From a virus, in IMG/VR virus record IMGVR_UViG_3300018890_000002, positions 1-64,000 of that record: DNA of 64,000 nt. One strand, 5' to 3'. Below the pieces are notes generated by a model. It was not told where the DNA came from and searched no databases. It saw nothing but the letters and a program-made list of their open reading frames with translations. Each line of letters opens with the position of its first letter. Position 1 is the first letter of the stretch. The translations under genes were made by a program, and so were the position numbers. Below, in pieces: positions 15,389 through 53,381 of the stretch.

Positions 15389-15903
15389 TTATTTCTCCAT
15401 CTTTGATATAAAATATTCCAACCAGCAGAACTCACTTGTCTTAGCTCTATTGGATTTCCAGTTAAAAGATAATCTAATTCGTTTTGCCATATAGGATAAT
15501 AAGTAAAACTTTGATTTCCTATATAGTTATTATCAATATCTACTAGAGATATGAAATACTCAAAGTTAAATAGACCTTCTTGATGTTGCTCATATTTATT
15601 AATCCATATAGTATTAGGAACTAATAAAAGATTTTCTAATATAACTTTAGAGGCTAGAGGATAAATCTCAGTAGTAATAGAACCTGCTATATGATCATTA
15701 AAGTCACTACAGATAACTAACTCATATTCTTTAGGATTAAGATACCTTCGTTTTTCTTTTATGCGTTGAGTAGTTACATCAAAATCGTATAAAGGAGAAT
15801 AAATTTGTAAGTGGCAAGTATTATTTCTGATAGAACCTAAGTAATCAGTTTGCCAATTAAATATTTTATCTACTTTTTTTGCGTTATTTTTATATTGTTC
15901 CAT
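15385..15903 (-). CDS. Hypothetical protein
   Basis: 172 aa ORF overlapping both neighbours. Confidence 0.7.
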   Translation of the reverse strand: MEQYKNNAKKVDKIFNWQTDYLGSIRNNTCHLQIYSPLYDFDVTTQRIKEKRRYLNPKEYELVICSDFNDHIAGSITTEIYPLASKVILENLLLVPNTIWINKYEQHQEGLFNFEYFISLVDIDNNYIGNQSFTYYPIWQNELDYLLTGNPIELRQVSSAGWNILYQRWRNK

Positions 15904-17003
15904 TAATCTCTCTTTAATTTATCTCTTATGAATGATTTGACATTAGACCATTTACCTGATTTATTTTTTCTACTATATCCTTTGACTTTTACATTAGGAT
16001 TAAAGCTGTCAAAAGAGGTCTTAGCATTCATTGCAGTAATAGTTCCGCCTACTCCAAGAATAGCTGCTCCGGCTAATGCTCTTTTAGGATTAGCTTTTAT
16101 TAATTTAACTGCTCCTTTTAATCTACTTCCTCCTCCTTCTGTTTTTAAAGCGTCTAATGTAGCAGAAGCGCGATTTCCATGTACTTTAATTTTATTTTCA
16201 GAGTACATTGCCCGGACATCATCAAAATCAGGTTTAAAGTTTTTATTAAAATACTCATCAGAACCTCCTAGATAAAGTGACCTTCCTTGAGCAGGATTTA
16301 ACGCTTTATTTATGACTTTACCTCTTTCTTCTCCTAAACGTTTAGCAGTTTTTTGTTGTAAAGTTTGCATATCCAACTGAGCTTGTTGACCCTCTAAACT
16401 TAAATCACTTTCAAAGGGACTTCTAAGTTTAAACTTAAATTTATCACTTATACCTTCTCTTACGTTAGCTTTATTAATTCGATCAGTATCTATCTTTCCT
16501 TGAAGTTCTTTAATTTTTCCTATATCTTCATTTACATAATTCCAATCAATTAGAGATTGCGCTCGATAACCAAGTCTTTGTTCTTTTCTAGCTAAAACTT
16601 GTTGTAAAGCACTTTCTTTTTTAGGGTCAACAACTACATTTAACATTGGATTTAGAGGATTAGGCATTTTTCTACTACCTGCATTCTCATGAATTCCAGT
16701 AATATAAGCTTTACCTTTAGCTTGATTAATATCTGTTACTCCACTAATTCCTTGTATAGATTCTAAAGATCTAATAGCTCCAGTACCACTTTTATTAGGA
16801 TCAATCCATCCACCATTTTTTAGTATCTCTTTAGCAGTTTTATTACTTGTACTATGAGATTCTAATCTAACTCCTAGGAGTCTAGGTATCCCTGAACGAA
16901 TAGTTTGTTGACCTGCATAACCAGTAGCTCCTAAATAAGCGATACCTTTACCTATACTTCTTTTTTTCTCTTCAGCTTTTTTAAATTCTGCTATGAAGTG
17001 CAT
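15903..17003 (-). CDS. Basic putative virion protein with ADP-ribosyltransferase-like core (paralog 2)
   Basis: HSTSNKTAKEILKNGGWIDP...AYITG...FKPDFDD; ends nearly identical to paralog 1. Confidence 0.5.
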   Translation of the reverse strand: MHFIAEFKKAEEKKRSIGKGIAYLGATGYAGQQTIRSGIPRLLGVRLESHSTSNKTAKEILKNGGWIDPNKSGTGAIRSLESIQGISGVTDINQAKGKAYITGIHENAGSRKMPNPLNPMLNVVVDPKKESALQQVLARKEQRLGYRAQSLIDWNYVNEDIGKIKELQGKIDTDRINKANVREGISDKFKFKLRSPFESDLSLEGQQAQLDMQTLQQKTAKRLGEERGKVINKALNPAQGRSLYLGGSDEYFNKNFKPDFDDVRAMYSENKIKVHGNRASATLDALKTEGGGSRLKGAVKLIKANPKRALAGAAILGVGGTITAMNAKTSFDSFNPNVKVKGYSRKNKSGKWSNVKSFIRDKLKRD

Positions 17004-17311
17004 ATTTTATTCCATTTATCTAATAAGTCATTTTCTAAACATTCAGTATAAATATTATCTCTTTGTTTTAAGTTACAAGTTTTACATGAGTATAATAAAT
17101 TGCTTTCACTTATGACTAAATCAGTATTGTTCTTTTCACTTAAGAGTTTTATAGGGATTATATGAAATAAATGTCCTTCTCCTAGAGATAAAGAAGATTT
17201 ACAAATAGGACATAAGTATAAAGCTTTTCTAATAAGACTTCTAGTAACTTCAAATGCTTCTCTACTTCTTTTCCAAGTATTGAATTTAGAACGATATTTT
17301 TTAAGAATCAT
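16991..17311 (-). CDS. HNH endonuclease
   Basis: CPIC...HIIP...NLLYSCKTCN. Confidence 0.85.
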   Translation of the reverse strand: MILKKYRSKFNTWKRSREAFEVTRSLIRKALYLCPICKSSLSLGEGHLFHIIPIKLLSEKNNTDLVISESNLLYSCKTCNLKQRDNIYTECLENDLLDKWNKICTS

Positions 17312-17601
17312 TATTTCTTTTTCTTTTGAGTTAAAAGTGAATTACCTAATGCTGCTCCCATTAATGTAGTAGCACCTGTTCCTATACCTCCAACAATGAG
17401 TTTTTCACGTAAAGATAATTTACTTCCTAGCGATCCTAATGCTGCACCTCCTATACCTCCTACTAATCCTGAACCAGCACCTATAGCTGCATTAATAAGC
17501 TTCTGTTTTCTTTTTCCCTTATCTTTTCCTCTACCTTTACCGAATCTGTAAGAAACCTTATAGGAAGAATCAATTTGTCCAATGAATGTTATATTTCTCA
17601 T
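17311..17601 (-). CDS. Basic glycine-zipper protein
   Basis: GxxxG repeats; GRGKDKGKRK motif. Confidence 0.7.
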   Translation of the reverse strand: MRNITFIGQIDSSYKVSYRFGKGRGKDKGKRKQKLINAAIGAGSGLVGGIGGAALGSLGSKLSLREKLIVGGIGTGATTLMGAALGNSLLTQKKKK

Positions 17602-17602
17602 A

Positions 17603-18094
17603 TTAAGAAATTGGTAATAAATAATTTTTCTTTCTCTTAAGACCTCGAAGTCCTCCTATCCCCCCACCTACCGCAGCTCCTTTATACCCGGCTTTCCAGG
17701 CACTTTTAGCTCCTTGATTGATAGCTCCACCAACTACACTTTTCCACCCACCTTTAAGACCTTTTAAACCACCTCTAATAGCACCAGATACTCCACCTAC
17801 TCCAGCAGATAGAGTTCCTACAGTTTTAGCATCATTAGATACTTTTCCTGCAAATGAAGTAGGAGCGTATCGCTTAGCTCTAGTGAGTAGAGAGTTATAT
17901 CCATTTTTACGAACAAAACTATCAGTAGCACCTCGAAGTCCCCCCATTACTCCACCAGTGATTCCACCAGCATTGTAACCCGCAGCAGCTCCTACTCCAG
18001 CTCCAATAGCAGCACTTTTTAATCGAGAAGGTTTCTTAGGTCTATTGAAGAAGTAAGAGGAATTAGTAGAACCAATAAAAGTTATTTTTTTCAT
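17603..18094 (-). CDS. Basic glycine-zipper protein
   Basis: GxxxG repeats; ITFIG N-terminus shared with neighbour. Confidence 0.7.
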   Translation of the reverse strand: MKKITFIGSTNSSYFFNRPKKPSRLKSAAIGAGVGAAAGYNAGGITGGVMGGLRGATDSFVRKNGYNSLLTRAKRYAPTSFAGKVSNDAKTVGTLSAGVGGVSGAIRGGLKGLKGGWKSVVGGAINQGAKSAWKAGYKGAAVGGGIGGLRGLKRKKNYLLPIS

Positions 18095-19338
18095 TATTTT
18101 TTCTTTTTATTAGGTTGCCTAAATCCTCTAACTAATCCTACTCCACTACCTAGTAAGCCTCCAGAAGCAGTACCCGCCACACCGCTAGTTAAACCAGATG
18201 TAACAGCTCCAGCTATTTTTTGTTTGAGAGAACCAGGAGTAAGTCTTGCACCTGAAACAGCTCCTTGTAAAGCAGACATACCACCAATAGTTTTAGCTCC
18301 TATTTTAGCGTCGTTACCAATTTTACCCGCTCTCGATCTAGCTCCAGTTTTTCGGAATCTATCTTTTTCTTTATCTATTTGTCTATCAATTAAAGCTCCC
18401 GAGACACCACTACCAACAGCACCAGTAACTCCTCCACCAATTAATCCTGTGACTAAACCTGTTTTTAAGCCTACTCTACTTTTTTTCTTTGGTTGACTAC
18501 TAGGTAAATTAAAAGCAAATTCAGTTATATTATCGTAATCGGAATAGCTATAGGTTTTTTTACCTACTTTAATAGTTTTTCTTTTAAGTAGTTTATTAAT
18601 TCCTGTAGCTCCCGAAGCTAATAAGGAACCTCCTACTGCACCTAAAGCTCCTTTTATTGCTGCACTTTTAATACTTTTTGAACCTTTTAAGCTAGAAGCT
18701 ACTCCAGTTAATGCTCCTACTCCAGCACCTAATTGAGCGTTACGTTTCAATGTTTTGTTACGATCTATTTGAGGTAATCCAAAAGCAAAATTAGAGACGT
18801 TATCAGTAGATTCACTAAACTTACCTTTCTTTTTCTTTCCCATTCTATTCTCTTGGACAAATCCTCTACCAGCACCTACTAAAGCACCAGTTCCAGCTCC
18901 ATTAATAGCTCCAGAGACTCCTCCACTGAGAACTCCTAAACCCGCTCCCAGAAGAGTGTTTTTAAGTTTATCTCTAGCTTCTGCTTTTTTATCTCTGCCT
19001 AATCCAAGAAATCCTTTTTTACGATGAGTGGGAAGACTAGAACCTAATGCAGCTCCAGCTAATCCAGCAGTAATAGCACTACCAATACCTACTGATTTAG
19101 CTCCTAATTTAGCATCATGACCTACTTTACCCAAATGACTTCTTGCACCTTCCTTATCAAATCTATCTCGTTCTTTATTAACTCCTTTAGCAATTAAAGC
19201 TCCCGCGATTGTTCCTACTGGGCCTCCTGCTACAGTGCCAAGACCTGCTCCTACCAAAGGATTAACTCTACTTTTACGTTTAGTCTTATCCTTCCCTCTA
19301 CCAAATTGAGATTGAACGTTACCAATAAAATGAATCAT
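18094..19338 (-). CDS. Basic glycine-zipper polyprotein-like protein (three modules)
   Basis: Modules separated by DNVSNFAF and DNITEFAF; modules 1 and 3 share KE(R/K)DRF..GARS..GK.G.DAK.GAK. Confidence 0.7.
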   Translation of the reverse strand: MIHFIGNVQSQFGRGKDKTKRKSRVNPLVGAGLGTVAGGPVGTIAGALIAKGVNKERDRFDKEGARSHLGKVGHDAKLGAKSVGIGSAITAGLAGAALGSSLPTHRKKGFLGLGRDKKAEARDKLKNTLLGAGLGVLSGGVSGAINGAGTGALVGAGRGFVQENRMGKKKKGKFSESTDNVSNFAFGLPQIDRNKTLKRNAQLGAGVGALTGVASSLKGSKSIKSAAIKGALGAVGGSLLASGATGINKLLKRKTIKVGKKTYSYSDYDNITEFAFNLPSSQPKKKSRVGLKTGLVTGLIGGGVTGAVGSGVSGALIDRQIDKEKDRFRKTGARSRAGKIGNDAKIGAKTIGGMSALQGAVSGARLTPGSLKQKIAGAVTSGLTSGVAGTASGGLLGSGVGLVRGFRQPNKKKK

Positions 19339-19370: not shown

Positions 19371-19961
19371 CTACCAAAGTCGTTCTTCTACACCAAAAAC
19401 TCTAGATCTGTCTTGTCTAAAGTCAAATTCCATATTACTTCTATTATGTTGATACTTACCAATTACAGTATAGTTTCGAGTAATATTATCTCTTCTCTCA
19501 GTTAGTTGAGGAGTAAAAGGAAGAAGTAAAGGATAAGCTTCTCTTATTGCATTATCTTCAGGGGCAAAGATACCGGGGATATAAATACCTGAGCCGATAA
19601 AATATCCTTTAAGTAATTCCTTAGCTTTCTGATAAATAGTAGAACCAAACCCACCATCTCCTCCAAGTGAAGCAATCATTCCTTGATCGTAAAGAGACAT
19701 CATTAGATCGTTAATAACGAATCCTTCTAATATTGGTTCTATTAGTGGAATATCTCTTGGGTCAATAGGTAAGACATAAAGCATTCCAAAATAAGTATCA
19801 ATAAGAGTTTCATTTCTAATGATTAAATCGTGTATTAGTTCAGTATCTAAATTACTAGATAAAACTGATACATTATCACTAGGAATAAGAGAGTTAGTAA
19901 AGACATTAGCTCTTCTACCTAATCGTCTTTGAATCTTTTCAACAGTTATATACTTATACAT
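19371..19961 (-). CDS. Head-tail adaptor (Mu gp36/DUF1320-like)
   Basis: YITVEKIQRRLG...LIDTYFGMLYVLPI...YQKAKELLK; TAATG-coupled start at 19961. Confidence 0.7.
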   Translation of the reverse strand: MYKYITVEKIQRRLGRRANVFTNSLIPSDNVSVLSSNLDTELIHDLIIRNETLIDTYFGMLYVLPIDPRDIPLIEPILEGFVINDLMMSLYDQGMIASLGGDGGFGSTIYQKAKELLKGYFIGSGIYIPGIFAPEDNAIREAYPLLLPFTPQLTERRDNITRNYTVIGKYQHNRSNMEFDFRQDRSRVFGVEERLW

Positions 19962-20383
19962 TAGATTCCATTCTTCTTTTTCCAATCATCAAATCGGGTA
20001 GCAGCTCTTAAGTTTCTAGCTACATCTAAACCATGCTTCTTATTCCATCTTTGAGCTTTAACTTTATTCATAAGTCCCCCTGCAATATCTTTTTTAATGT
20101 TGAGTCCAGTATTTACTACTCCTCTAGCTTGTTGTACACCTGGTAGTATAGTATTTTTAAAGTAGTTTTTCTTACTCTTATCATTCATAAATATCCCAGC
20201 AGTTTTCATAGCTGCATAAGTCTGTCCACCTGTAACTAATCCTCTTTTAATCTTTTGATGGGTAGTAGCTTTTGAATCTCCAGTAGCAGCTAATGCCCCA
20301 ACCGCTAAGGGAACTAAATATGGGCTATTCTTTTCTATAAATCTCTTACGTTTTTTAGCTGGACTATCAAATGGTCGCCACAT
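19961..20383 (-). CDS. Basic hypothetical protein
   Basis: 140 aa Lys/Arg-rich, translationally coupled. Confidence 0.65.
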   Translation of the reverse strand: MWRPFDSPAKKRKRFIEKNSPYLVPLAVGALAATGDSKATTHQKIKRGLVTGGQTYAAMKTAGIFMNDKSKKNYFKNTILPGVQQARGVVNTGLNIKKDIAGGLMNKVKAQRWNKKHGLDVARNLRAATRFDDWKKKNGI

Positions 20384-21936
20384 TAATCTTTCCCCTCTAT
20401 TTGTCTCATCTCTTTATTTATATCATTAATGACAGGTCGAATAAGTCTAGGATATATACTAGGTAAAAGTTGTCCAAAAATAACATAACATACAGCTAGA
20501 AAAGCTAATACCCCTTTTAGGTTTAACTCCTTAAAAAAACTAAGGACATTGACGTTTAATAAATCATCTAATTGGTCTTTTAACTTCTTATTACTTTCTT
20601 CTATTCTAGTTAACTTTTCTCTCATAACATTGTCTTCATTTTTCAGAAAAGCAACGTCATTGAGTAAATTATTATCATTATTATAAAAAATAGTATTATT
20701 AAGTCTACTGATTTCTTCTTCCAATTTACGAATAATTATTTCTGCTTTTATAAGTCCTTCTGGGTTAGAAGTAAGAGGATTATGAATTAACTTAGAAAAA
20801 ACATCATTAGACATTTTAGTATTTTCTAAAGTCTTCAATAGTAAATCGGTTCTTCCTTCCATCTCATCTATACGAGTAGTTAAAAGAGCTTCTTGACTTT
20901 GATCGATTACAGTAGATAAAATTCTCGCTTGCCCATCTCTATTAATTAATCTATTAGACCACTTAGTATCAATGAGAGAACCGTCTTTTTTAGCTAACTT
21001 AAAATTACTAATTACACTTTCTACTTCATGAGCAATTAGTCTATAAATCTGACCTTGCATTTTAATCGAATCTTCATCATTAAAAAGATTAAGTTCAGAA
21101 ATATGTTTCCCTAAAGCTACTTCATTACTCCAACCTAACGTTTCACAAGCTTGTTTATTCCATCTACTAACTTTACAATCTTTATCCCACTCTATTTTTA
21201 TAATTACACTACTGTTAAAACTATCTTCATCTAGGTTTTTAAGCTCTGTTATTTTTGAAGTCATCTCAACTTCTAAAGTAATATCTCTTAAATAACCAAC
21301 AATTTTGGATTCACCATCTTTAGGTATTACACAAGAATGGTCTAATATACTAATAGCTTTTCCTGAACTATGTAGTAGTCTATACTTCTGATAAAAAGAA
21401 GATATTTTATTTTTTATATTTTTTGCTAACTCTTTAGAGAAGAATTCTTTATCTTCAGGATGTATAAGATCCAAATAAGGTCTAGATAATAATTCTTTTT
21501 TTGTATATCCCAATAAAGAAACTACATTATCAGAAATCTCATCTATCTTCTCTTCTTTATTATTAAGCCAACGAATAAGAAATATATAATCTTCTTTAAA
21601 TAGTGTCTCTGCTAATAAAGTATCGGTTTTTTCAGTTCCTACCACTACTATGTAATTCTGATATCTATAACCAGTAAAAATAATTTCTATCTCCCTTTTG
21701 TTTTGGACATCGTTGATAGTAGTAGTTATAGTATTTTCACCTTCATTAAATACTTTATCTAGAAAAGACCTGGTACTATCTGAGTAAGTGTATCCTTTAA
21801 CAGTTTCAAAATTACTTACTGCTTGATTAAGTCTATCTGTCTTATACGAAGGAATATAGTAAGTAATATTATCACTTATATATCTGTAATAATAATTCTC
21901 CCCACATTTTTCAATTAATATACTAAAAACAACCAT
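20383..21936 (-). CDS. Multi-PAS-domain protein with coiled coil and C-terminal membrane helix
   Basis: LLGYTKKELL..YLDLIHPED..YRLLHSSGK..GYLRDIT (PAS/PAC); second PAS WNKQACETLGW..KKDGSLIDTKWSN; TM GVLAFLAVCYVIFGQLL. Confidence 0.88.
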   Translation of the reverse strand: MVVFSILIEKCGENYYYRYISDNITYYIPSYKTDRLNQAVSNFETVKGYTYSDSTRSFLDKVFNEGENTITTTINDVQNKREIEIIFTGYRYQNYIVVVGTEKTDTLLAETLFKEDYIFLIRWLNNKEEKIDEISDNVVSLLGYTKKELLSRPYLDLIHPEDKEFFSKELAKNIKNKISSFYQKYRLLHSSGKAISILDHSCVIPKDGESKIVGYLRDITLEVEMTSKITELKNLDEDSFNSSVIIKIEWDKDCKVSRWNKQACETLGWSNEVALGKHISELNLFNDEDSIKMQGQIYRLIAHEVESVISNFKLAKKDGSLIDTKWSNRLINRDGQARILSTVIDQSQEALLTTRIDEMEGRTDLLLKTLENTKMSNDVFSKLIHNPLTSNPEGLIKAEIIIRKLEEEISRLNNTIFYNNDNNLLNDVAFLKNEDNVMREKLTRIEESNKKLKDQLDDLLNVNVLSFFKELNLKGVLAFLAVCYVIFGQLLPSIYPRLIRPVINDINKEMRQIEGKD

Positions 21937-21941
21937 TTCAT

Positions 21942-22220
21942 TTATTCTTTCGTTTTGGTAGGGGCAAGCTTAGTAGTTAACAAGCCCACTGGAATACCTG
22001 ACTCTGCACTTTCTCTGATATCATTATTCACTCTCATACGACCTTGACTTACTCCTAAGAAACTAAATGTTCCAATGAGCAATTGAGTAAAATCTTCTTT
22101 AGTCATTTCTTTCTCATATAGGTAATTTACTATTGGTGAGTAGACTACTGAAAGATAAAGTAAGAAAGAAAAGAAAAAAGTCTTAGTGAAGTAAAGAGAA
22201 CGTTTCATTTTACTTTTCAT
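21942..22220 (-). CDS. Putative holin (2 TM)
   Basis: ~92 aa, basic N-terminus and two hydrophobic helices; directly after the peptidase. Confidence 0.55.
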   Translation of the reverse strand: MKSKMKRSLYFTKTFFFSFLLYLSVVYSPIVNYLYEKEMTKEDFTQLLIGTFSFLGVSQGRMRVNNDIRESAESGIPVGLLTTKLAPTKTKE

Positions 22221-22225
22221 ATTTT

Positions 22226-23002
22226 TTAATTTGCTATATGCACCCAATAATTTCCATCACCTTCAGGAGCGCCTACTTGTTTAATTAATGGGAAAGAATA
22301 TAACGTTTCTTTACCCGCAGTAGGACTATGAATATATCCATTATGAGTAAACTCTCCATAAGGATCGTTAACTATAAATGCACCAACTCCATCATAAGCG
22401 TCATAATCAGAACCAACTAAGAGAATAATATGAGTACCTTCAGTCAAGAATGTTCCTAAAATAACAGGAGCTTTTTTAACAGCATCTTTTATCTCTTGGA
22501 ATGTCCCAGTAGTAATAGGAGTATATTTAACTCCATAACTATTCATAATAGCGGATATGTCTTGGTGAGAAAATCTATCATATCCTAAATCTAAGCATTT
22601 ATTATATAAAGCATCAGGAGTTACCTTAATCTTATAAAAAGACAAGAGCATTGCTACACAACTTAAGAAACAAGAAGTATAAGGTTGATAGTTATTATAT
22701 AGTTGATAATAGTAATCAGTTTTAAGTGAAGTTTTACTATTAGAGCTAGTAACAGGATTTTTAGATTCTTCCGTTATATCAACGTGTTCTTTATAGATGT
22801 ACCAAACTCTAACACCTACAGGTAAATCTTTTAAATTAGATGTAAGTAGTTTAACCTCTAAGTGATTATCTTTTTCTCTTAAAATATCTACTACTATTTC
22901 AGTGTTAATCTCCAACCAATAAAAGTATTTAGAGTCAAGTTCAATGAATGGAATTGGTCTACTCTTAAGAGGAGTTTTATTTATGATTTTTAATTTAGAC
23001 AT
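22226..23002 (-). CDS. C39-like (papain-fold) peptidase, probable endolysin
   Basis: YYYQ..N...SCFLSCVAM, HIILLVG, FIVNDPYG catalytic motifs. Confidence 0.82.
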   Translation of the reverse strand: MSKLKIINKTPLKSRPIPFIELDSKYFYWLEINTEIVVDILREKDNHLEVKLLTSNLKDLPVGVRVWYIYKEHVDITEESKNPVTSSNSKTSLKTDYYYQLYNNYQPYTSCFLSCVAMLLSFYKIKVTPDALYNKCLDLGYDRFSHQDISAIMNSYGVKYTPITTGTFQEIKDAVKKAPVILGTFLTEGTHIILLVGSDYDAYDGVGAFIVNDPYGEFTHNGYIHSPTAGKETLYSFPLIKQVGAPEGDGNYWVHIAN

Positions 23003-23884: not shown

Positions 23885-24319
23885 TTATTGAAAAGAAAAG
23901 TTAAATTCTTCCCAGCTTTTACCCATAGGAGGTTTTACTTTAGTAGTCAAATCAGTTAAATCTGTGTAAGGCTTATTAGTTACTAATTGAGTAGCAATCT
24001 TTTCACCAATACCTTTAAGTTCTTTAATTTGCTCTAGAGTCATTCTATTAACATCTAGCTTAGATACAATTTCTACCTTACTAGGGTCGTAAAACTTAGG
24101 AGTTAGAGTAGTTACTTGAGGTTCAGTTAAGTGATAAGTTTCATCTGTAATAGAAGTCTCTTTATAAACAGCTACTTGAGTATCATCCTCTATAGTCACA
24201 ACATTCATAGGGGTTAGGTATTCTTTAGGAATTTCTCCTTCCATATAAGCAGTCTTCCTAGCGAACAGCATATTACCCTCTTTAGTAAGAATGTTTTTTA
24301 GCAGAATATATTTTTTCAT
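23885..24319 (-). CDS. Helix-hairpin-helix (ComEA-like) DNA-binding protein
   Basis: LDVNRMTLEQIKELKGIGEKIATQLVTNKPYTDLTDL. Confidence 0.8.
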   Translation of the reverse strand: MKKYILLKNILTKEGNMLFARKTAYMEGEIPKEYLTPMNVVTIEDDTQVAVYKETSITDETYHLTEPQVTTLTPKFYDPSKVEIVSKLDVNRMTLEQIKELKGIGEKIATQLVTNKPYTDLTDLTTKVKPPMGKSWEEFNFSFQ

Positions 24320-24325: not shown

Positions 24326-25492
24326 TTATTTTACTTGTTGAGAGTATAGCTGCTTAGGATTCATTGCAATAGGTAGAAAAGTAGCAGTTGCCATTGATAC
24401 GTCTTGCTTAGGATGTTTATTTTGTTCATAAGTAGTTACATAGATACCTGATTTAGGCTCAATAGGAACATCTCCACTACCAACAATTGCAGGAACAGAT
24501 TCAAGAGTAGGGCCAATAGCACTAATTCCCATATCTTCTTTAAGAAATACGAATCGATTGTTATTCAAAAAGTTAACATCGACAATTGAACCGTCAGGAA
24601 GTTGTTCTTGATACTTTTCTTCAAATACTTCTACTTCTGGTAAATCTCTCATTGATAAGAGTTTTCTACCCATATCAGGAGATACTAGACCTAATTCAGT
24701 AGTAGTCAGCTGGCGAGCAGCATCTCTGGTACTCTTTTGCTGTAAAAAATCCTTCCATAACTTACGACTCATTACAATTTTATCTGGCATATAACCATTA
24801 GTATCGTAGTAAGTATCACACGCATCAGATAGATTTTGCAGAGCTTGAGCATTTGCATAATCATTCCACTTATTCAAAGTAGGAGTTACTGTATTTCCGG
24901 TATCAGTAAGAGGAGCAGGAAAATGATTGTAATTAACTCCAGCTTTTTTAAAATCTAGTGATAGAGGAATGCCTGTTCGTGGGTCAGTCATATCAACTGC
25001 ACCAGTTTGAACTACTTGCCATTTCAAGTGATCCATCCGGTCAGTAATACCTCTCAATAAGTCATTCATTTGACCAAAGAGAATAGTAGCTAAGTCAGGA
25101 CTTGAACCAGGAGTTACAGTACCATTAGGATTATAAACCTTTTGAACTTTAATACCTTTAGTAATAGCTAGATTCTGAGCTTCCATCATTTTCCACTGAG
25201 TTTCTTCATCATAAAGACGTGAAGTACCTAGTTTGAATAATGTAGCAGCCATCCTTTCAACTCCACCAAAGCTTACCAATGGAATTTCAGCTCCATAAGC
25301 AACTATTGATGCAGCAGGTGCTACTCGTTTAGTAAGTAAACCAACAAAATCTCTCCCATCAAACATTTGAGTAGGGAAGTATTTATCAATTAGCTTTCCT
25401 CTTTTGAGTAGCATATTTTCAGTTTCATCTACCATAGCCATTACTTGCTTGGCGACAAACCTTTCAGAAAAAAAACTTGCAACGTATGCCAT
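24326..25492 (-). CDS. Major capsid protein (lambda gpE family)
   Basis: 388 aa; ASIVAYGAEIP, WQVVQTG, G(Y)MPDKIVMS, FLPIAMNP motifs; follows decoration and scaffold genes. Confidence 0.9.
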   Translation of the reverse strand: MAYVASFFSERFVAKQVMAMVDETENMLLKRGKLIDKYFPTQMFDGRDFVGLLTKRVAPAASIVAYGAEIPLVSFGGVERMAATLFKLGTSRLYDEETQWKMMEAQNLAITKGIKVQKVYNPNGTVTPGSSPDLATILFGQMNDLLRGITDRMDHLKWQVVQTGAVDMTDPRTGIPLSLDFKKAGVNYNHFPAPLTDTGNTVTPTLNKWNDYANAQALQNLSDACDTYYDTNGYMPDKIVMSRKLWKDFLQQKSTRDAARQLTTTELGLVSPDMGRKLLSMRDLPEVEVFEEKYQEQLPDGSIVDVNFLNNNRFVFLKEDMGISAIGPTLESVPAIVGSGDVPIEPKSGIYVTTYEQNKHPKQDVSMATATFLPIAMNPKQLYSQQVK

Positions 25493-41331: not shown

Positions 41332-41661
41332 ATGAGAATTCAGCAACGCTATAAAGAACCAATCGAAGGACTTCATATTGAGACTGGTGGAAGTAGCTCG
41401 CTAGAGCCTCACTTTGGGATATTAGTATCTCCTCTAGCTAACTCAATTCCTGATACTCATCAACCATCTAATTTTAAGATTCTATTCGTCTTTAGTATTG
41501 CTACTTTCATTGGTTTATTTATTGGATGGTTCTTGACTAACTCAATAAATAATGAGAAGTTGAAGTCTGCGGAGTTGAATACTAATCTTGCTAAACTCAA
41601 TCTTGCTAAGAATCAAGAGCAGATAGATAATTTCTGTAGAGCAAACTCATCCTTAAGATAG
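41332..41661 (+). CDS. Single-TM protein
   Basis: ILFVFSIATFIGLFIGWFL followed by coiled coil. Confidence 0.7.
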   Translation: MRIQQRYKEPIEGLHIETGGSSSLEPHFGILVSPLANSIPDTHQPSNFKILFVFSIATFIGLFIGWFLTNSINNEKLKSAELNTNLAKLNLAKNQEQIDNFCRANSSLR

Positions 41662-41749
41662 CCAAGCTCAGCAGTATGAAACGATAAATAAGCAAACTCA
41701 TCCATTAGGTTCAGGGAGCATCTAAGTAGACAAAAAATAGGGTAAAGCA

Positions 41750-42358
41750 ATGGTTAAAAAAGCTAAGGACGTAAATCTTGGGTTAAGTAATGTTCCTAAA
41801 TGGTTGTCAGGAGTTAAGATTCCTTCGATTCTGGTAAAAACGTTCGGCATTAATCCAGGACAAATGGGAGGACTAACTTTAGATTCATTATCTCAAGCTA
41901 AGGCATTATCTGAAGGGGCATTACTCCAAGTAGAGATGGCTCATAAGTTCTTTGATTATTTGAAGAATATATGTGAATCTCATGAGGAAATAGAGAGACT
42001 CAGAGCTGATGCAGTTAAGCTAATGTACTCAACTAAGGAAAGAGAAGATAGTTCTATTATGTCTGCTCTTTTAGCTGAGACTAAATATCAGGAGCATTAT
42101 GAGACTTGGCAGCATAAATTAGCTGGTAGTCAAGAACTTATTAAGCAGAAAGGAAAGTTAGATAGAGATTATTTAACTGAGAATTTTAAGAATAAACTCT
42201 TAATAGCTATTGAGTTTGGTAAAAGGAAGAAAGAAAAATCAGATAACTCCGTTAAAGCGTTAAAAGCTAATAATGGAAAAGCAATTAAAGAAGATTTAGA
42301 AAGAGAAAAGCAATTGAAAGAAGCTAGAGCTAAATTTGACCAACTTATTAAGAGGTAA
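41750..42358 (+). CDS. Coiled-coil hypothetical protein
   Basis: 202 aa helical ORF. Confidence 0.75.
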   Translation: MVKKAKDVNLGLSNVPKWLSGVKIPSILVKTFGINPGQMGGLTLDSLSQAKALSEGALLQVEMAHKFFDYLKNICESHEEIERLRADAVKLMYSTKEREDSSIMSALLAETKYQEHYETWQHKLAGSQELIKQKGKLDRDYLTENFKNKLLIAIEFGKRKKEKSDNSVKALKANNGKAIKEDLEREKQLKEARAKFDQLIKR

Positions 42359-42363
42359 GAGTT

Positions 42364-42876
42364 ATGTATTTATATCCTATGGGGGATGATAATGGAAGTG
42401 CTATTGATCCTAAAAATATCTATAAGTCTGCTGAGATAATAGATGTTGAATCAGAACAGTATGAGGAAGAAGAACTTTTATCTCAGAATAATCAATATAA
42501 AAGAATTACTAAGCAATGGTTAATCTTACAAGAAGTTTCAAGAGCTATTTTATTCACTTCTGGAACATCTTGGATATTTTTAGTCTTTAGGTCTATTAAT
42601 TGGTTCCCGTTAGTCATAGGACTTAATATACTTTTTTTCTTAGCTATAGGAGTTATATTTTCTATGTCTTGGAGTAAGTTGAAGGTAATAGATAGAGTTA
42701 GGTTATTTGTGAGTGGAATAGCTACAGGCTTTGCTTCTGCTATTAGTGGTTCTGATATTCTTTATTTTTGGTTTATGAATAACCAAATATTAGCTTTATC
42801 TATAGTAGTTACTGTATTAGTGGTTCTTAGTCTTATAGGAATATTAGGCTATAGGACTAAAGTGTTGAGGTATTAA
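42364..42876 (+). CDS. Four-TM membrane protein
   Basis: Four hydrophobic helices after an acidic N-terminus. Confidence 0.75.
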   Translation: MYLYPMGDDNGSAIDPKNIYKSAEIIDVESEQYEEEELLSQNNQYKRITKQWLILQEVSRAILFTSGTSWIFLVFRSINWFPLVIGLNILFFLAIGVIFSMSWSKLKVIDRVRLFVSGIATGFASAISGSDILYFWFMNNQILALSIVVTVLVVLSLIGILGYRTKVLRY

Positions 42877-42877
42877 T

Positions 42878-43384
42878 ATGAAAAAGAACTTAAGAGCTAT
42901 TGGTATTTTCGTAGGATGTATAAGTGCTTCTTGTGCATTGATGGTACTATCTGCTCTTACTCCTAAACAAAATTTATATCTTATCAATAATCAAATTAAT
43001 ACTTTAACGACTAAGACTAACGATAAAAAAATACAATCTAACTATACTTTTTTAGCTTTTATATTACTCTCAGGAGCTATTCCATTTGCTGCTATGTCTT
43101 TATTAGTTGTGTCTAATAGATTACCAGAGATAGAGTTAGAAGCTGAGGAGTATAATAAGCAGAAAGAAATAAGAAGAATAAGAAAAAACTCCGAATTAGA
43201 AACTGAGAAGGAGTTATGTAATGCTAATAAAACTGTAACTGTCACTGCTCATGAGAAGAATTTAGAGAGTGCATTTGTTGAGTTAGCTGAAGCTAGTGAT
43301 TGGCATTATGTATCAGATAATGATGAGGAAGAAGTAAAAGATAGTAACTCATTAGTAATAGAAGATCAAAAAAAAAATTCTTGA
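42878..43384 (+). CDS. Two-TM membrane protein with coiled coil
   Basis: Two hydrophobic helices; ends in an A10 run. Confidence 0.75.
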   Translation: MKKNLRAIGIFVGCISASCALMVLSALTPKQNLYLINNQINTLTTKTNDKKIQSNYTFLAFILLSGAIPFAAMSLLVVSNRLPEIELEAEEYNKQKEIRRIRKNSELETEKELCNANKTVTVTAHEKNLESAFVELAEASDWHYVSDNDEEEVKDSNSLVIEDQKKNS

Positions 43385-44562
43385 ACTCTGAGAGATATCA
43401 CGAAAATAGACTACTAAATGATTTAGCTTACTCCGATAAGTCCATTATTATTAGTGGTTCTAACGGTTCAGGTAAGAGTCATACATTAAGTCTATATTTG
43501 AGATTGCTATATGAACAAGCTAGAAATAAGGATCAAGTTGCATCTACCTGGATATTAGCTAGAAAGAATGATAGTTTCTGTGGATTGAGAGAAGCAGATA
43601 AATTAGTTATCTTCAATACTTTAGACCCTAGTGAAGCTTTTAAGTTAATAGAGAAGACTTATAAAAACTTTCAAGCTCGACTTAAAGTAGTTGAAGAAGT
43701 AGATAGAGTTAATCTTCCACCTTTGAGATTAATATTAGAAGATTGGTCATCTACTGTAATGATACTTAAGAAAGCTCATAAAACTCTTTGGACTAAGATT
43801 GAGTTAATGCTTCTTGATATTATTACTGTTGGTAGAGAATATAATGTTTGCTTAGTAATCTTAACTCATACGATTGGTTTAGAAGCTTTAGGATTAGTGG
43901 TAGATTCAAATTTAAGAGCCAATCTTACTATTGTTGTTCAAGGTCTTATTAGAAATGAGTTAGGAAAGATTAAAGGAGACTATTTATTGATTGAGCTAGC
44001 TATTAAGAATCAGTTTATTGTTCCCGATAATTCATTGAGATCTGTTTATTTAACTCAAGTGAATGATTTGATACCTGAATCGAGAAAAGAACAAGTTCCT
44101 ATTTATTTCACTACTTTGGGAAATGGTGGAGTTGGTCTTCTTCCTTATATTCAAAAGTCTAATATTGATTTTACTGAGAGGGAGATAGATGAGGATTTAG
44201 TCTTTAGAAATAATAATGAGTTTAGGTTATCTGAGAAGTTAGAGGATGATGGGGATGTTAGAGATTCATTAGAGAGGTTATATGAGTTAGAGGAAGTGAA
44301 AGAAGAAATAGATGATATGATAGAGATGAAATCACAAGAAGATAGCGAGTTAGAAGAAAGTGAAATCATTTATTATACTGCTTTAAGACTTAATAAGAAA
44401 AATGCAATTGAGCTAATTTATAAGTTAAAGGTAGAAATGAAACATACACAGACTCAAATTATATGGATGTTATGGAATGCTAAACCAGGAGTAACTAAAG
44501 CTTATAAGAATGCTGTTAGCGAGTATAAAGAATTAATGAGGGATGAAATAAATGAAGAGTAA
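43381..44562 (+). CDS. FtsK/HerA-superfamily P-loop ATPase
   Basis: GSNGSGKS Walker A, LILEDW Walker B, GREYNVCLVILTH. Confidence 0.8.
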   Translation: MNSERYHENRLLNDLAYSDKSIIISGSNGSGKSHTLSLYLRLLYEQARNKDQVASTWILARKNDSFCGLREADKLVIFNTLDPSEAFKLIEKTYKNFQARLKVVEEVDRVNLPPLRLILEDWSSTVMILKKAHKTLWTKIELMLLDIITVGREYNVCLVILTHTIGLEALGLVVDSNLRANLTIVVQGLIRNELGKIKGDYLLIELAIKNQFIVPDNSLRSVYLTQVNDLIPESRKEQVPIYFTTLGNGGVGLLPYIQKSNIDFTEREIDEDLVFRNNNEFRLSEKLEDDGDVRDSLERLYELEEVKEEIDDMIEMKSQEDSELEESEIIYYTALRLNKKNAIELIYKLKVEMKHTQTQIIWMLWNAKPGVTKAYKNAVSEYKELMRDEINEE

Positions 44563-45172
44563 AGTTTCAGGTTACGTTTATATTGTTGGTGCAGTGGGAA
44601 CTCGATATTTTAAGATTGGCATTAGTCAAGAGTCAGTAATGAGAAGGTTGTGTAATCTTCAAACAGGTTCTCCTCTTAAATTAAGGTATGTTTATCATGG
44701 TTACGTAGCTAATATGTTTCAAACAGAAAAAGACTTACATAAGATATTTAGTTCTTTTCGTACTATTGGTGAATGGTTTTCTTTAACTACTGAGGGTGTA
44801 CAAGAATGTATTACTCTAATAAGGTTAATGCAGGTAGAGGAACAAAAAGAAGAAGTGAGTAAACCTATACTAATGGAGGAGGAAGATTTAGAAGAAGAAC
44901 CATTTTGTGATATTGCTTGGAATGTTAAATTAGTTAAAGAATATTACCCAAATACTTCTCTTGAAGATTTGTTCTTATCAATACGTAACTCAGCTTTATC
45001 TGGAAAAACTGCTAGATATATTATAAGAACTGTTTTAAAGTTTACTGATGGAAAAAACCATCCTACTAAGAGTTACACGAATCATGGAAAAACATTGTTG
45101 AAATGGTTGATAATAAATTATGACTTTAATGATGAAGTTTATAATTTACCTGAGATACAAAAGTTATTTTGA
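44552..45172 (+). CDS. GIY-YIG (T5orf172/MUG113-like) nuclease domain protein
   Basis: GYVYIV..YFKIGIS..RRLCNLQTGSP..EKDLH..GEWF. Confidence 0.85.
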   Translation: MKSKVSGYVYIVGAVGTRYFKIGISQESVMRRLCNLQTGSPLKLRYVYHGYVANMFQTEKDLHKIFSSFRTIGEWFSLTTEGVQECITLIRLMQVEEQKEEVSKPILMEEEDLEEEPFCDIAWNVKLVKEYYPNTSLEDLFLSIRNSALSGKTARYIIRTVLKFTDGKNHPTKSYTNHGKTLLKWLIINYDFNDEVYNLPEIQKLF

Positions 45173-47348: not shown

Positions 47349-47383
47349 TACCGGTAAACTATCCCCGGTGACAAGTGAGAAAA

Positions 47384-47779
47384 ATGACTACTCAAAAAGA
47401 ACAAATCGATCTATCTCGTTTTTTTCCCTCTCAATGGTTGCAAGATGATTACACACTTAAAGCAAGCGAGACAGACCCGGAGGAAGAAGTTAAAATTCAG
47501 AAAGTCGAGATAGTGGAAACACTCCCCACAGTACGCAACACTGTCAAAGGGCGACTACCTGAGTATTTAAAGCTCCTTTTCATCCTTTCCTCTATGAGCT
47601 ATAAGACAGAGGATAACAAAGCTAGTTATCGAATCCTTATCTGTAACAAATCACCCAACACCTCAACCGCTTATGATTCTTTTTACTTAGTTCTAGACAC
47701 TAAGAACAACTACCGAGGTTTTGCAGACAGTGAGTTAAAAGCTTGTGAGTTAGCTGAACTGATTATCAAGAAACCTTAA
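47384..47779 (+). CDS. Hypothetical early protein
   Basis: ORF; ATG at 47384 preferred. Confidence 0.7.
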   Translation: MTTQKEQIDLSRFFPSQWLQDDYTLKASETDPEEEVKIQKVEIVETLPTVRNTVKGRLPEYLKLLFILSSMSYKTEDNKASYRILICNKSPNTSTAYDSFYLVLDTKNNYRGFADSELKACELAELIIKKP

Positions 47780-47881
47780 CTCTAATCTAATCACTGCTGT
47801 ATAGTTCGTTGCTATGCAGTGGTATTTCTCCCCTATACCGTTAAAACTGGGGAGATGTTAACCAAACACAAAGGATCTAAA

Positions 47882-48328
47882 ATGTCTAACACTATCCCAG
47901 TAATTGATTCTACATCTAATCTCTGCCAGCATCAATTCGAGAATCGCTACTCTATCTACTGTCATGATCCCTTTGAAAACCAACCTATCAGCAATGAATT
48001 AATCGAGCAATTAGCTACTCAGTTAAGTGCAATTAGCCCTGTAATAGTTACTACCAAAATGGCTAGCGGTAGAATTGGTAAGTTTTTAACGGCGGATAGT
48101 TTCGATGTCTTACAGAACCAAGTCAATCAGAAGGAGGAGAATAAAGACTTTTTAGCAGAAGGGTTTAGGGGTTACTTACTAGACATCACTCACTCAGCGT
48201 TTTATAAAGGTTATCCCAAACTATTCTGGATTAATTTTGATATTGACAGAGTAGACTTAGAACTTTTTGAATATGGCGAAATAGGTTATTATCAACTGAT
48301 TAACAGGTTTGCAGTTCCTAGAATTTAA
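47882..48328 (+). CDS. Hypothetical early protein
   Basis: AAGGA RBS before MSNTIP at 47882. Confidence 0.7.
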   Translation: MSNTIPVIDSTSNLCQHQFENRYSIYCHDPFENQPISNELIEQLATQLSAISPVIVTTKMASGRIGKFLTADSFDVLQNQVNQKEENKDFLAEGFRGYLLDITHSAFYKGYPKLFWINFDIDRVDLELFEYGEIGYYQLINRFAVPRI

Positions 48329-48429
48329 CCCTTCACTACTCCTATAGTCTGTCGTTAGCTATAGGGGCATTGATACCTAACACCGATAAAACTAGGTATT
48401 TTATCCACCAATACTTAGGAAGAAAGACA

Positions 48430-48789
48430 ATGACTGATATAGAAAAGTTAGAAGCAATTCTTGAGATGAGAGGGAGAACGCTGCCGACAATTCAAAGAGT
48501 AGGGGAAGTAGTTAAAAGTGAAAGATGTAAAATGTGGCATCATCTAGCAATTGTTAACATTACATCATACGGTATAGGTTATATTCTAACAGTTGACAAA
48601 ACCCATCCGACTCTTAAGTATCACTACATCGCTGTTACTGCGGATTATGAACCAATAGGGATCTACAAATATATAGAAGATGCTCAACATTTTCTAGTAG
48701 GGGATCTAAAATACGCAGCAGTTCTCGGAGGTAAAAGTCAGGAAGCCAAACCTAGACCTTATGATGCTGTGTTAGGTGGCAAGAGATAG
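48430..48789 (+). CDS. Hypothetical early protein
   Basis: Start MTDIEK at 48430; C-terminal AVLGGK duplication. Confidence 0.65.
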   Translation: MTDIEKLEAILEMRGRTLPTIQRVGEVVKSERCKMWHHLAIVNITSYGIGYILTVDKTHPTLKYHYIAVTADYEPIGIYKYIEDAQHFLVGDLKYAAVLGGKSQEAKPRPYDAVLGGKR

Positions 48790-48795
48790 TTAATT

Positions 48796-48861
48796 TTCTC
48801 AGACTCAATGGTGAGAGATAGTGCAATCATTATCTACTAGGTTCGATCCCTAGCTGAGATC
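48796..48861 (+). ncRNA. tRNA-like cloverleaf without canonical anticodon loop
   Basis: TCTCAG/CTGAGA; CTC-AATGGT-GAG; AGATAGTG-CAAT-CATTATCT; CTAGG-TTCGATC-CCTAG. Confidence 0.75.
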
Positions 48862-48901
48862 TTCCCTATATGGGAGTTCACTTAAGACAAAGGAGAATAT
48901 C

Positions 48902-49198
48902 ATGTCTACTGCAATCAACAAACAAGTCAAGCAAATAATGTCTAATTTCCCTTACTACTTGGGAGAATATTTGATAGTAAAGGAGACTAAGATTACTACA
49001 CATTTAGGTAGTGAATTTGCAATCTATCGAATAGAAATAATAGTGGGGGATGTTGTAAGATATTTAGATTTAATCACTACTGTCTTTCAATGTTTTAAAG
49101 GGGTTGGCGGTTTCTATGGAGATATCCGCTCAAGTCATCGGATAGCAGAGATAATGTGTGACTCATTAGCCGTTCTAGATTACCTTGAAGAGAGATAA
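48902..49198 (+). CDS. Hypothetical early protein
   Basis: AAGGAG RBS; 98 aa. Confidence 0.7.
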   Translation: MSTAINKQVKQIMSNFPYYLGEYLIVKETKITTHLGSEFAIYRIEIIVGDVVRYLDLITTVFQCFKGVGGFYGDIRSSHRIAEIMCDSLAVLDYLEER

Positions 49199-49207
49199 AC
49201 ATTCATC

Positions 49208-49263
49208 AATCTACAGCCAATAGGTGGCTACTAAGTAATTAGGTTCGATCCCTAAGTAGATTA
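49208..49263 (+). ncRNA. tRNA-like cloverleaf with vestigial anticodon arm
   Basis: AATCTAC/GTAGATT; GCC-AATAGGT-GGC; TAC-TAA-GTA; TTAGG-TTCGATC-CCTAA. Confidence 0.78.
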
Positions 49264-49302
49264 TTCCCAATATGAGTTATTGGGGTTTATTAGGAGGATC
49301 AA

Positions 49303-52300: not shown

Positions 52301-52356
52301 ATTTAGACGCTTTAGAGGAAGCTTTAGAACTAGCTAAAGAGTCAGATAACGTCTAA
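49303..52356 (+). CDS. Large hypothetical protein (1017 aa)
   Basis: Long ORF with AGGAGG RBS; no motif recognised. Confidence 0.85.
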   Translation: MFKKSELKTIANCQQALRSLIDVEFFCYDVKTISFYFGTTKIILNNADSKAIVDKGPKLADLQLACMNFSATYNYNVVCKVNNEGLLESTTAIYQWDSTTERMVLLPLDENFQAFECPPLPDDETVANLVDRPIVPFDSETNTEVKTEKIEVKPQSEKVKIEKTQASEPITPELVEDITPIKLPSEIGVYIVLSDKENQSVKKRLPISLESIRPHLMAWLSGTDQHYQGQLAKFKEAIKSSKHNALTLYLYRPYTWQVMDVAGDKQLRKVEVTSAKTPEIRTQKKGSITQNSRDAIPELGSMYTISPVKILESGNIYLAQTYIELSVDNDYLLRSRKIAIFENGTLKYHSELIETERDKHDIHPLVEADGKRIFPQMSIAHIELQTLEPNPNNPEYYLNVKKPHYEPVIGGKLVLKSSITPDTDMSQFVKVGNDYLEYNTYLNTPIKFEGFKHPNISPKAPKKHEITQRQNVKPVKIHNEKVVSGQIEFTDVVSTVPMLLRLTPSQTGYALVGLPLKLPDDFTYDLARYIASNLGQNSIGYLNSEIQRVKSSPSLMIGRFDKYQLLSALEKLAKGVLAEEKLDPKGVLESKNKLKAYMGKQDFYSSSVDPYFSFYPLASVKIVQETESLKYSYRLTNFGDSRGLIKNNLSSVQTWIQRISYNLKNYFGVKKPDFNEVKNYLKDNFKFKNCNLKVYYSTGIFFEVWHLDQMVAKQLISIIDPANTEKVWNISVVNIARNIQFGDNRIFEKVLKCNNLIDSDLIQFAKSQLSKVVDKFITANEKKLVGEGKIKQTTAVKEVVGFDKTSHGFSNIKSTFLRFITPFSIESEVDKGKLFNLRTGKILDRHSANDLFETMVKNWKQWGRDKDSTIHLGGYEFKKPNPGKLMLEIHHKVSDNPELDKIIWPEVIEIWWQLTNEPIGFRTSSGVVLTPWSIHSNRVDIWEYRIKMQKIDILRDQKTNESKPDRIKSHLQLSIERLTEILDKTYPIWYQQISEDVRKHLDALEEALELAKESDNV

Positions 52357-52487
52357 CCAAGCTAGCTAGGGTATATCTGGTAAATTATCCTAGCTTTAGC
52401 TACTAACTTAGATAACGTGCATAATCTGCATACCCAACTATCTATTATTAGTAGTGAACTGTAAACACTCAACATAGGACAGAAACA

Positions 52488-53381
52488 ATGCTTAACATTA
52501 ACGACGCGATCGCTTCTTTTGGTAACATGACTCTAGCAACCGTGGCAGAAGAGTCAATGATTCTCGAATACAAGCAAGCAGTTGAACGGAAAAATAAGTT
52601 AGGACAAGTTACATCTTACGCGGTTAAAGGTGATGCAACACTTGAGTCAATCTCGATTAATTGGTGTCAAGATAACGACGGTTCACAGTGTCTTCATCTT
52701 AAGAAAAAAACTGAATTGCTCGCTTCTTTCAATCTCCGATCTAATGGCACGATTGAATGGCTTCCTAATACTACATTCAACGTTCGATCGACATTAATTG
52801 CAAAACCAATTGATCCAGAACAAGACACAATAGTTTCTTTTTCGCTTTATAACTTCTTTGATCAGTGGATTAAGTCTAAGCCTTTCTCTGTTGGTCTTAA
52901 TCAACTAGCACAGGAGATGATCTACCCTCCTGCTGTTGTTAAGCTTCTATTGCTGTTTATTTCTTACATGACAGAGCGCACCCGCCAAGCTGAATTAACA
53001 GGTAAACTCTCTCAAGAAGCTAACCTGACAATTGACATGGATCGAGTATCTGTGATGTATCACGATCTGTTACGTCGCCTAGTTGGTGATAAAAAGCGGA
53101 TGCAAAGGTTATATGCAGGTGCAAGTGACTTCATCGCTCTGCCAGCTAACAGGGATGAGATTTTAGCTTTAGTAGCAGAAGAAGTCGATCAACCCGAACC
53201 AATAGCAGAAGAAAAAACCATCGATCCTGACAACACAGAAGACGATCAGGATATTATGTCTCTACCTTCAGAACCCCCCGACGATAAGAAATTTGAAGCA
53301 GATTTTAAGGAATTAGTAGAAAGTTCTGAACCGATCGAGGTAACAGTTAACCCTGATACTGAGGAAACACAACCAGAATAG
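52488..53381 (+). CDS. Hypothetical protein with acidic Pro-rich tail
   Basis: 297 aa ORF followed by terminator. Confidence 0.8.
   Translation: MLNINDAIASFGNMTLATVAEESMILEYKQAVERKNKLGQVTSYAVKGDATLESISINWCQDNDGSQCLHLKKKTELLASFNLRSNGTIEWLPNTTFNVRSTLIAKPIDPEQDTIVSFSLYNFFDQWIKSKPFSVGLNQLAQEMIYPPAVVKLLLLFISYMTERTRQAELTGKLSQEANLTIDMDRVSVMYHDLLRRLVGDKKRMQRLYAGASDFIALPANRDEILALVAEEVDQPEPIAEEKTIDPDNTEDDQDIMSLPSEPPDDKKFEADFKELVESSEPIEVTVNPDTEETQPE

Follow-up and report, generated by a model that had tools for sequence, protein, structure and literature searches.

Known systems of lysis timing and the locus analysed

Signal-dependent timing of lysis is described for phage T4, with its holin T and the antiholins RI and RIII (PMC11413866, PMC8385771), and as lysis inhibition for phage ICP1 (PMC7182436). 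In mycobacteriophages, LysF1a (88 amino acids (aa), two transmembrane domains, TMDs) and LysF1b (one TMD) jointly set the timing of lysis (PMC13056207), and vibriophage VP882 encodes a homologue of VqmA, the PAS-domain receptor VqmA-Phage (PMC8284805). We analyse a locus of an uncultured soil-crust phage in which a PAS-domain protein of 517 aa is encoded beside a putative holin and a probable endolysin. It lies in the first 64 kb (64,000 nucleotides (nt), hereafter the window) of the 81,218-bp IMG/VR virus record IMGVR_UViG_3300018890_000002. A first-pass annotation of the window had reported a contiguous late-strand trio of a C39-like peptidase, a small holin candidate with two transmembrane (TM) helices and a multi-PAS protein, and had read the last as a sensor-gated holin or antiholin. 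The three open reading frames (ORFs) are confirmed on the minus strand where they had been placed, i.e. the C39 gene at 22226..23002, the small TM gene at 21942..22247 and the PAS gene at 20383-21936. The trio as an observation is thus confirmed and its earlier interpretation is partly supported.

By analogy, LysF1a/LysF1b may be regarded as the nearest studied arrangement to the trio. In both cases a small protein with two TMDs (N-in/C-in, a topology predicted for the protein of the window) is followed by a single-TMD protein with a large soluble part, beside a known or probable endolysin. By contrast, the TMD of LysF1b is N-terminal (N-out, C-in), LysF1b contains no PAS domain and has no sequence relation to the PAS protein, and the hosts and their envelopes differ. 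As in the lysis inhibition of T4 and ICP1, a phage protein would sense a condition and shift holin triggering, which for the PAS protein is a proposal; however, RI is small and senses in the periplasm, RIII is small and cytoplasmic, and none of these proteins is known to have a PAS domain or a C-terminal anchor. PHROG scans give no sequence relation between the T4 antiholins and the PAS protein. VqmA-Phage is a soluble PAS-HTH transcription factor at the lysogeny-lysis switch, whereas the PAS protein of the window appears to be membrane-anchored and has no DNA-binding domain; VqmA-Phage is reportedly linked to the lysis decision of phage VP882. XhlA of the Bacillus PBSX-type lysis cassettes consists of a coil and a C-terminal TM helix. 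It resembles the PAS protein in the order of a cytoplasmic coiled coil and a C-terminal TM helix and in being encoded beside holin and lysin, but it has ~90 aa and no sensor. In brief, LysF1a/b, the T4 and ICP1 proteins and VqmA-Phage all differ from the PAS protein in sequence and architecture, and a PAS protein in a phage lysis cassette is not described in the titles and abstracts among the full-text literature matches listed.

Architecture, conservation and modular history of the PAS protein

The PAS protein contains two domains that Pfam recognises well above its cut-offs. PAS-A (aa 119-220, of PAS_3 type; 21277..21582) is matched by PAS_3 (PF08447) at residues 133-214 (E 7.5e-19, 68.2 bits against a cut-off of 25.6), and PAS-B (aa 246-345; 20902..21201) by PAS (PF00989) at residues 248-322 (E 2.8e-15, 56.8 bits against 22.6); PAS_9 (PF13426) also matches (E 1.3e-12, 48.3 bits against 27). 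An AlphaFold2 model, with a predicted local distance difference test (pLDDT) value of 67 overall, mostly 74-90 in the PAS-A and PAS-B blocks and 81-90 in PAS-B, comprises three alpha/beta domains (residues 1-102, 119-218 and 246-345), helices at 347-460 and a helix at 474-514. The strands and helices of 119-218 and 246-345 make up a five-stranded antiparallel sheet with flanking helices, i.e. the PAS fold. The N-terminal domain (aa 1-104; 21625..21936) has a PAS-like strand order at lower model confidence, and its sequence matches no family beyond noise at E ≤ 10 in a Pfam and PHROG segment scan. Two clear PAS domains and possibly a third, degenerate one had been counted earlier; the two hold, and the third is PAS-like in its predicted fold and has no sequence match.

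The best Foldseek match of the model is the triple-PAS protein PpsR (4hh2, 385 columns, E 5e-16), followed by the tandem PAS domains of FixL, and the matches to PpsR, FixL, DosP and bHLH-PAS proteins span E 5e-16 to 1e-11. Weak PDB sequence matches of PAS-A are to the PAS domains of PER, ARNT and HIF. PAS-A also carries an invariant D199-H200-x-C202 on its H-beta strand. In agreement with the first-pass annotation, no kinase, GGDEF, EAL or HTH family is found at E ≤ 0.1 in the whole protein, nor at E ≤ 10 in residues 346-517.

The helical region (aa 346-468; 20533..20901) had been described as one long coiled coil. Its heptad-repeat helices form two segments parted by an Asn-rich break: the a/d positions are 100% hydrophobic in residues 392-418 (20% elsewhere; shuffle p ~0.002) and 82% hydrophobic in residues 424-460 (19% elsewhere; p ~0.004). 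A C-terminal TM helix (aa 469-496) and a charged tail of 21 residues (aa 497-517) complete the protein (20386..20532). This single TM helix, as noted earlier, recurs at the equivalent position in all 33 family members, with a best 19-residue Kyte-Doolittle mean of 1.69-2.58, and the N-terminus has no signal peptide-like sequence. From these features we infer a tail anchor that leaves most of the protein, probably, in the cytoplasm. Segment scans of the helical region and C-terminus against Pfam and PHROGs at E ≤ 10 return only coiled-coil noise, and the ESM Atlas gives no usable feature match for residues 346-517, its structural matches being generic helices with TM-score < 0.4.

A search of 5.8 billion proteins recovered 32 full-length homologues (513-520 aa, 50-77% identical), all metagenomic; the next matches are generic PAS proteins that cover <55% of the query. 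Conservation along the family is uneven. Mean pairwise identity is highest in helix 391-432 (0.82, with 22 of 42 columns invariant), which an invariant P-L-T (residues 387-389) immediately precedes, and is 0.72 in residues 346-390, 0.62 in PAS-A, 0.60 in PAS-B, 0.56 in the N-domain, 0.52 in the TM helix and 0.49 in the tail; invariant columns number 25 of 102 in PAS-A and 16 of 100 in PAS-B. This conservation map, which peaks at helix 391-432, is new here. The possibility that the P-L-T motif is a GGDEF remnant was considered and rejected, as there is no GGDEF match.

Different parts of the protein also have different histories. Compared with P0002, its closest relative, P0001 is 91% identical in residues 1-118, ~57% in 119-345 and 95% in 346-517, with the transitions located at the borders of PAS-A and PAS-B. 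We therefore treated residues 1-118 plus 346-517 as a frame partition and residues 119-345 as a sensor block. In the frame tree P0001 and P0002 are sisters (ultrafast bootstrap 100, Shimodaira-Hasegawa-like approximate likelihood ratio test 99), while in the sensor-block tree P0001 pairs with P0003 (97/92), both being part of a clade of five (100/98) to which P0002 does not belong. Approximately unbiased (AU) tests, whose p-values are descriptive since the groups were chosen after viewing the identity table and trees, reject the P0001+P0002 clade for the sensor block (p 6.9e-6) and the sensor-tree clade for the frame (p 0.0025, careful tree); a frame result from a quick tree (p 0.595) was set aside because the quick search was ~29 log-likelihood units short. 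P0018, P0021 and P0031 also join N, sensor and C parts of differing affinity (AU p 2.8e-4). Judged from these comparisons, the PAS protein is a three-module mosaic in which the history of PAS-A/PAS-B differs from that of the N-domain and the helical/TM part, a result that is also new here. An exchange of PAS-A/B independently of the rest is what one would expect if a sensor module were joined to an unchanging output, and it favours sensing over pure scaffolding.

Gene order and distribution

The PAS gene is present in 11 related IMG/VR loci, and the order C39, small TM and PAS is kept in all of them, with a gap of 4-7 nt between the small TM and PAS genes in 11 of 11, a spacing that suggests coupled translation. 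The linkage to putative lysis genes that one would look for in relatives therefore exists, in one phage clade. In every one of these loci the PAS protein is a membrane protein encoded by the second gene downstream of the lysin candidate, the position expected of the holin/antiholin class. The C39 gene adjoins the small TM gene in 10 of 11 loci and is directly preceded by a basic leader-bearing gene in 4 of 10. All nine loci that extend far enough have a capsid gene upstream, and on the downstream side the loci share their head and neck genes. Directly after the PAS gene comes a basic protein of 116-137 aa in 6 of the 11 loci or a basic ORF of 68-71 aa in the other 5.

Outside this clade the PAS protein is scarce. 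No match to it was found at E ≤ 1e-3 by tblastn against 50,697 cultured-phage records. A profile of its C-terminal 172 aa against 1.84 billion representative proteins retrieves only its own family and P0101, a 391-aa singleton that is 26% identical over 380 aa, collinear with residues 141-507 and devoid of the N-domain. P0101, encoded on a 1,859-bp ENA contig, forms a singleton cluster and is the sole distant relative of the helical/TM module; it has no relatives and no locus in the viral or metagenome contigs searched.

Two other phages have a C39 and membrane-protein pair. In Microcoleus phage My-WqHQDG, the C39 homologue and, after it, a membrane-type ORF of 106 aa stand as an island of two genes on the strand opposite to their neighbours, with no PAS gene. 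In IMGVR_UViG_3300040801_006105 (L029:3746-5684), a distant and apparently temperate phage, a 280-aa C39_2 gene overlaps a 55-aa TM ORF that is followed by an integrase-like 311-aa ORF, again with no PAS gene. These pairs suggest that the PAS protein is an addition specific to the clade of the window.

The C39 peptidase and the small membrane protein

The C39 protein (258 aa) matches PF13529 (Peptidase_C39_2; E 1.8e-13, 51.7 bits against a cut-off of 24), as the earlier description of a C39-like peptidase implied, as well as PF03412, PF12385 and the C-terminal half of phrog_10051 'endolysin' (4.1e-16). It consists of a conserved beta-rich N-terminal domain (~residues 1-80) and a papain-like domain; in an alignment of 12 sequences the N-terminal ~80 residues are strongly conserved too, and C111, H191 and D213, which we take to be the catalytic residues from the usual papain-like order, are invariant in 12 of 12. 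The protein has no hydrophobic N-terminus, signal sequence or signal-arrest-release (SAR) sequence and would thus need a holin to reach the wall. Its AlphaFold2 model (pLDDT 48.5) is too poor to check active-site geometry, and a PDB profile search with the alignment gave no meaningful match. Homologue searches returned the same phage clade and no named cellular relatives.

In cultured phages, all 13 records matched by tblastn are cyanophages. These share the catalytic domain at 25-36% identity (A-HIS1 ORF088, PSS2, S-PM2, DSL-LC03 'endolysin', S-CREM1 'lysozyme' and My-WqHQDG), some are annotated as endolysin or lysozyme, and in My-WqHQDG, too, the next gene encodes a small membrane protein; they differ from the phage of the window in lacking a PAS gene by tblastn. 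C39_2 is listed among endolysin domain classes (PMC5017753), and its counterpart in the LysA of mycobacteriophages is the N5 cysteine-protease domain (PMC3314691).

All five related records contain C39_2, and two of them carry terminal repeats at 146.5 and 151 kb. None of the five contains Phage_lysozyme, Amidase_2, Amidase_3, GH25, M15_4, M23, NlpC/P60 or CHAP; GH19 is not judgeable because its controls gave no match, and SLT gave one sub-threshold 12.5-bit match that contains a stop codon. The C39 protein is hence the sole cell-wall hydrolase that can be recognised in any of the five records and, by its domain content, probably an endolysin. Taken with the C39/small-TM pairs that lack a PAS gene, this makes a set of lysis genes plus a clade-specific PAS addition a reasonable description of the trio.

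The small TM ORF encodes 101 aa from a TTG start, and the true start is probably Met10 at nt 22220, which gives ~92 aa. The protein starts with a basic N-terminus and TM1; a short acidic loop then leads to TM2, which is weak and rich in Gly and Ser, and the charged tail that follows is conserved. Of the two TM helices originally proposed, TM1 is firm (17-residue hydropathy mean 1.9-2.15 in 12 of 12 sequences) and the second is marginal (mean 1.0-1.55, Gly/Ser-rich). No Pfam or PHROG family matches, segment scans at E ≤ 10 included; TM1 alone is weakly similar to the ORF after the C39 gene of My-WqHQDG (pairwise E 8e-5). We treat the protein as a holin candidate. Mantel correlations between small-TM distances and each part of the PAS protein (r 0.62-0.71) do not differ between parts and are uninformative, and a predicted complex between the small TM protein and residues 340-517 of the PAS protein scored 0.00 (mark 0.32), which is not evidence either way.

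A possible role in lysis timing and its alternatives

We tentatively propose that the PAS protein acts as an accessory to the holin and modulates triggering time through its cytoplasmic PAS array, a reading that we hold to be possible, if short of probable. The three genes would form a phage lysis block within the late head-gene transcript, in which (i) the C39_2 cysteine peptidase, which lacks signal and SAR sequences, would be a cytoplasmic endolysin; (ii) the ~92-aa protein would be the holin; (iii) the 517-aa PAS protein would be a clade-specific holin accessory, tail-anchored in the inner membrane, with its three PAS-fold domains and heptad helices remaining in the cytoplasm and the helices probably serving dimerisation; and (iv) this accessory would advance or delay holin triggering by an intracellular cue, such as a metabolite or the redox or energy state. 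A bolder version is a lysis clock with an exchangeable sensor, in which the triple-PAS unit reads a redox-, energy- or light-dependent state and gates the holin via the invariant helix and the anchor, and PAS-A/B are swapped to retune the input; this we consider rather doubtful. The PAS protein may thus have a role in lysis timing, for which it is the gene order that argues. Of the sensor-gated holin or antiholin first suggested, the architecture and the fixed linkage to a probable endolysin and a holin-like gene stand; no sequence link to a holin, antiholin, XhlA or releasin family was found.

Several observations weigh against the proposed holin accessory. No holin, antiholin, XhlA or releasin family of Pfam or PHROG matches the whole PAS protein or its C-terminal segments at E ≤ 10 beyond noise (XhlA, PF10779, reaches E 1.1 and 10 bits against a cut-off of 34.7 with the C-terminal segment; DUF2730 is not listed), and at 517 aa the protein is, to our knowledge, far above the size of known holins and antiholins. 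No cofactor-specific family (LOV Cys, heme His and flavin contacts were looked for) scores above the generic PAS models. The small TM gene has two alleles, only ~51% identical, beside PAS proteins that are ~90% identical, which indicates no tight co-variation or co-adaptation of the pair. The cytoplasmic helix is more conserved than the TM helix (0.82 against 0.52), which points to a cytoplasmic rather than a membrane partner. The 11 loci belong to one phage clade and several are near-identical, so that the synteny does not amount to 11 independent observations, and the lysin role of the cyanophage C39_2 homologues rests on annotation. The trio is also not a separate lysis unit: it is embedded in the array of head genes, flanked by the major capsid and neck genes; basic leader-bearing genes are interleaved with it (in L009 one of 137 aa stands between the C39 and small TM genes); and neither promoter-like sites (31 against 41 ± 6.5 in shuffles) nor terminator-like sites (2 against 4.4) give a signal that separates it. 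Given this position and the basic proteins encoded in between, a role in the virion or in entry is conceivable.

Such a role would make the C39 protein a capsid- or tail-delivered wall cutter, with both membrane proteins ejected along with the DNA to build or regulate an entry channel. The position of the block, with the major capsid gene on one side and the head/neck genes on the other, and its interleaving with basic Gly-zipper, leader-bearing proteins, would fit; however, the C39 homologue of Acaryochloris phage A-HIS1 is not annotated as a virion protein while the nearby ORF089 and ORF093 are, the C39 and TM pair lies outside the structural genes in My-WqHQDG and L029, and the PAS domains carry genuine sensory-type sequence signatures, so we regard an entry function as very improbable. 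The same patchwork of inserted accessory genes around the trio is also what one might see if the PAS protein were a membrane-anchored sensor with a non-lysis job (e.g. to tether or inactivate a cytoplasmic factor of the host at a late stage of infection, to exclude superinfecting phages or to organise assembly at the membrane), merely co-transcribed beside lysis genes. Mosaic phage genomes often juxtapose unrelated genes, the peak of conservation in helix 391-432 fits a conserved cytoplasmic partner, and the PAS protein does not co-vary with the small TM protein. Yet the gap to the small TM gene stays within a few nucleotides at every locus, the anchor is kept in all 33 members and no alternative partner or output has been identified; we judge a non-lysis job unlikely.

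If the protein does belong to lysis, its PAS folds might still serve for dimerisation or as a scaffold only, in a structural co-holin or a LysF1b- or XhlA-like accessory that senses nothing. PAS domains often serve as dimerisation modules, no cofactor signature was found here, and sensorless two-component holin-like pairs are known (PMC13056207). Against this stand the long retention of three PAS-fold domains over ~345 aa with the many invariant columns in PAS-A and PAS-B, and the exchange of PAS-A/B between lineages, for which selection on specificity is the simpler explanation. An accessory without sensing therefore seems quite improbable, and a holin accessory with a sensory PAS array is the reading that we carry forward.

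Genome setting

The window has a GC content of ~30-35%. A search of sequencing runs found one full-length carrier, a biocrust metagenome run that may be the sample of origin, with no RNA run among the matches listed. Two related genomes, G001 (151,199 bp) and G003 (146,537 bp), have direct terminal repeats, which suggests a complete genome of ~150 kb. CheckV estimates 48-49% completeness for these two and 26% for the record of the window; the 26% figure is probably too low for this clade.

The minus strand from ~34.7 kb down to 3 bp is a morphogenesis array. It encodes, in order, the large terminase (phrog_38, 1.2e-71), a 974-aa protein, an acidic 345-aa protein, the major capsid protein (24326..25492; phrog_29 at 1.6e-29), three small ORFs and the trio, and then variable basic Gly-zipper proteins with an HNH gene, a head protein (phrog_240), a Neck1-type protein (phrog_26) and a tape-measure-like protein. 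The capsid protein is ~30% identical to those of Pseudanabaena phages PA-SR01 and Pam2. Just after its gene, a 144-aa ORF (23885-24319) has weak helix-hairpin-helix/PsbU-like matches (E ~1e-3) below Pfam cut-offs. A 204-aa downstream protein was considered as a Mu gp36-type head-tail adaptor; it has no Pfam or PHROG match and the assignment is not claimed.

The gene that overlaps the PAS stop codon encodes an optional basic Gly-rich protein of 140 aa (19961..20383, minus strand). It belongs to a basic, Gly-zipper-rich family with short common N-terminal leaders (M-x-x-I-T-F-I/M-G type), found in the window also at 17311-19338 and 15903-17003 and in relatives at L006:3764-4180, L007:8455-8937, L009:9308-9721 and L011:8538-8948. 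Insertion site and copy number differ between related phages, one site lying between the C39 and small-TM genes. These proteins may be packaged cargo or mobile gene cassettes.

On the plus strand, 41332-45172 holds a cluster of small membrane proteins unrelated to the trio, together with a T5orf172/MUG113 protein (E 4.8e-14) and a protein of 393 aa that T2SSE/AAA families match weakly (E 9e-4). For ten ORFs at 47375-60758 (134-1,017 aa) Pfam gave no family at E ≤ 0.01, which indicates that this phage group is very poorly annotated.

Implications for phage lysis

Known signal-responsive lysis timing relies on small periplasmic or cytoplasmic antiholins that report superinfection. If the proposal is correct, a cytoplasmic PAS array wired to a holin would instead tie bursting to the physiological state of the host, and would offer synthetic biology a lysis switch that is compact and can be transferred. 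Because the sensor block is exchanged as a module, it provides a natural experiment on specificity. In biocrust or cyanobacterial hosts that live through light-dark and wet-dry cycles, host state could then decide burst size and the survival of progeny.

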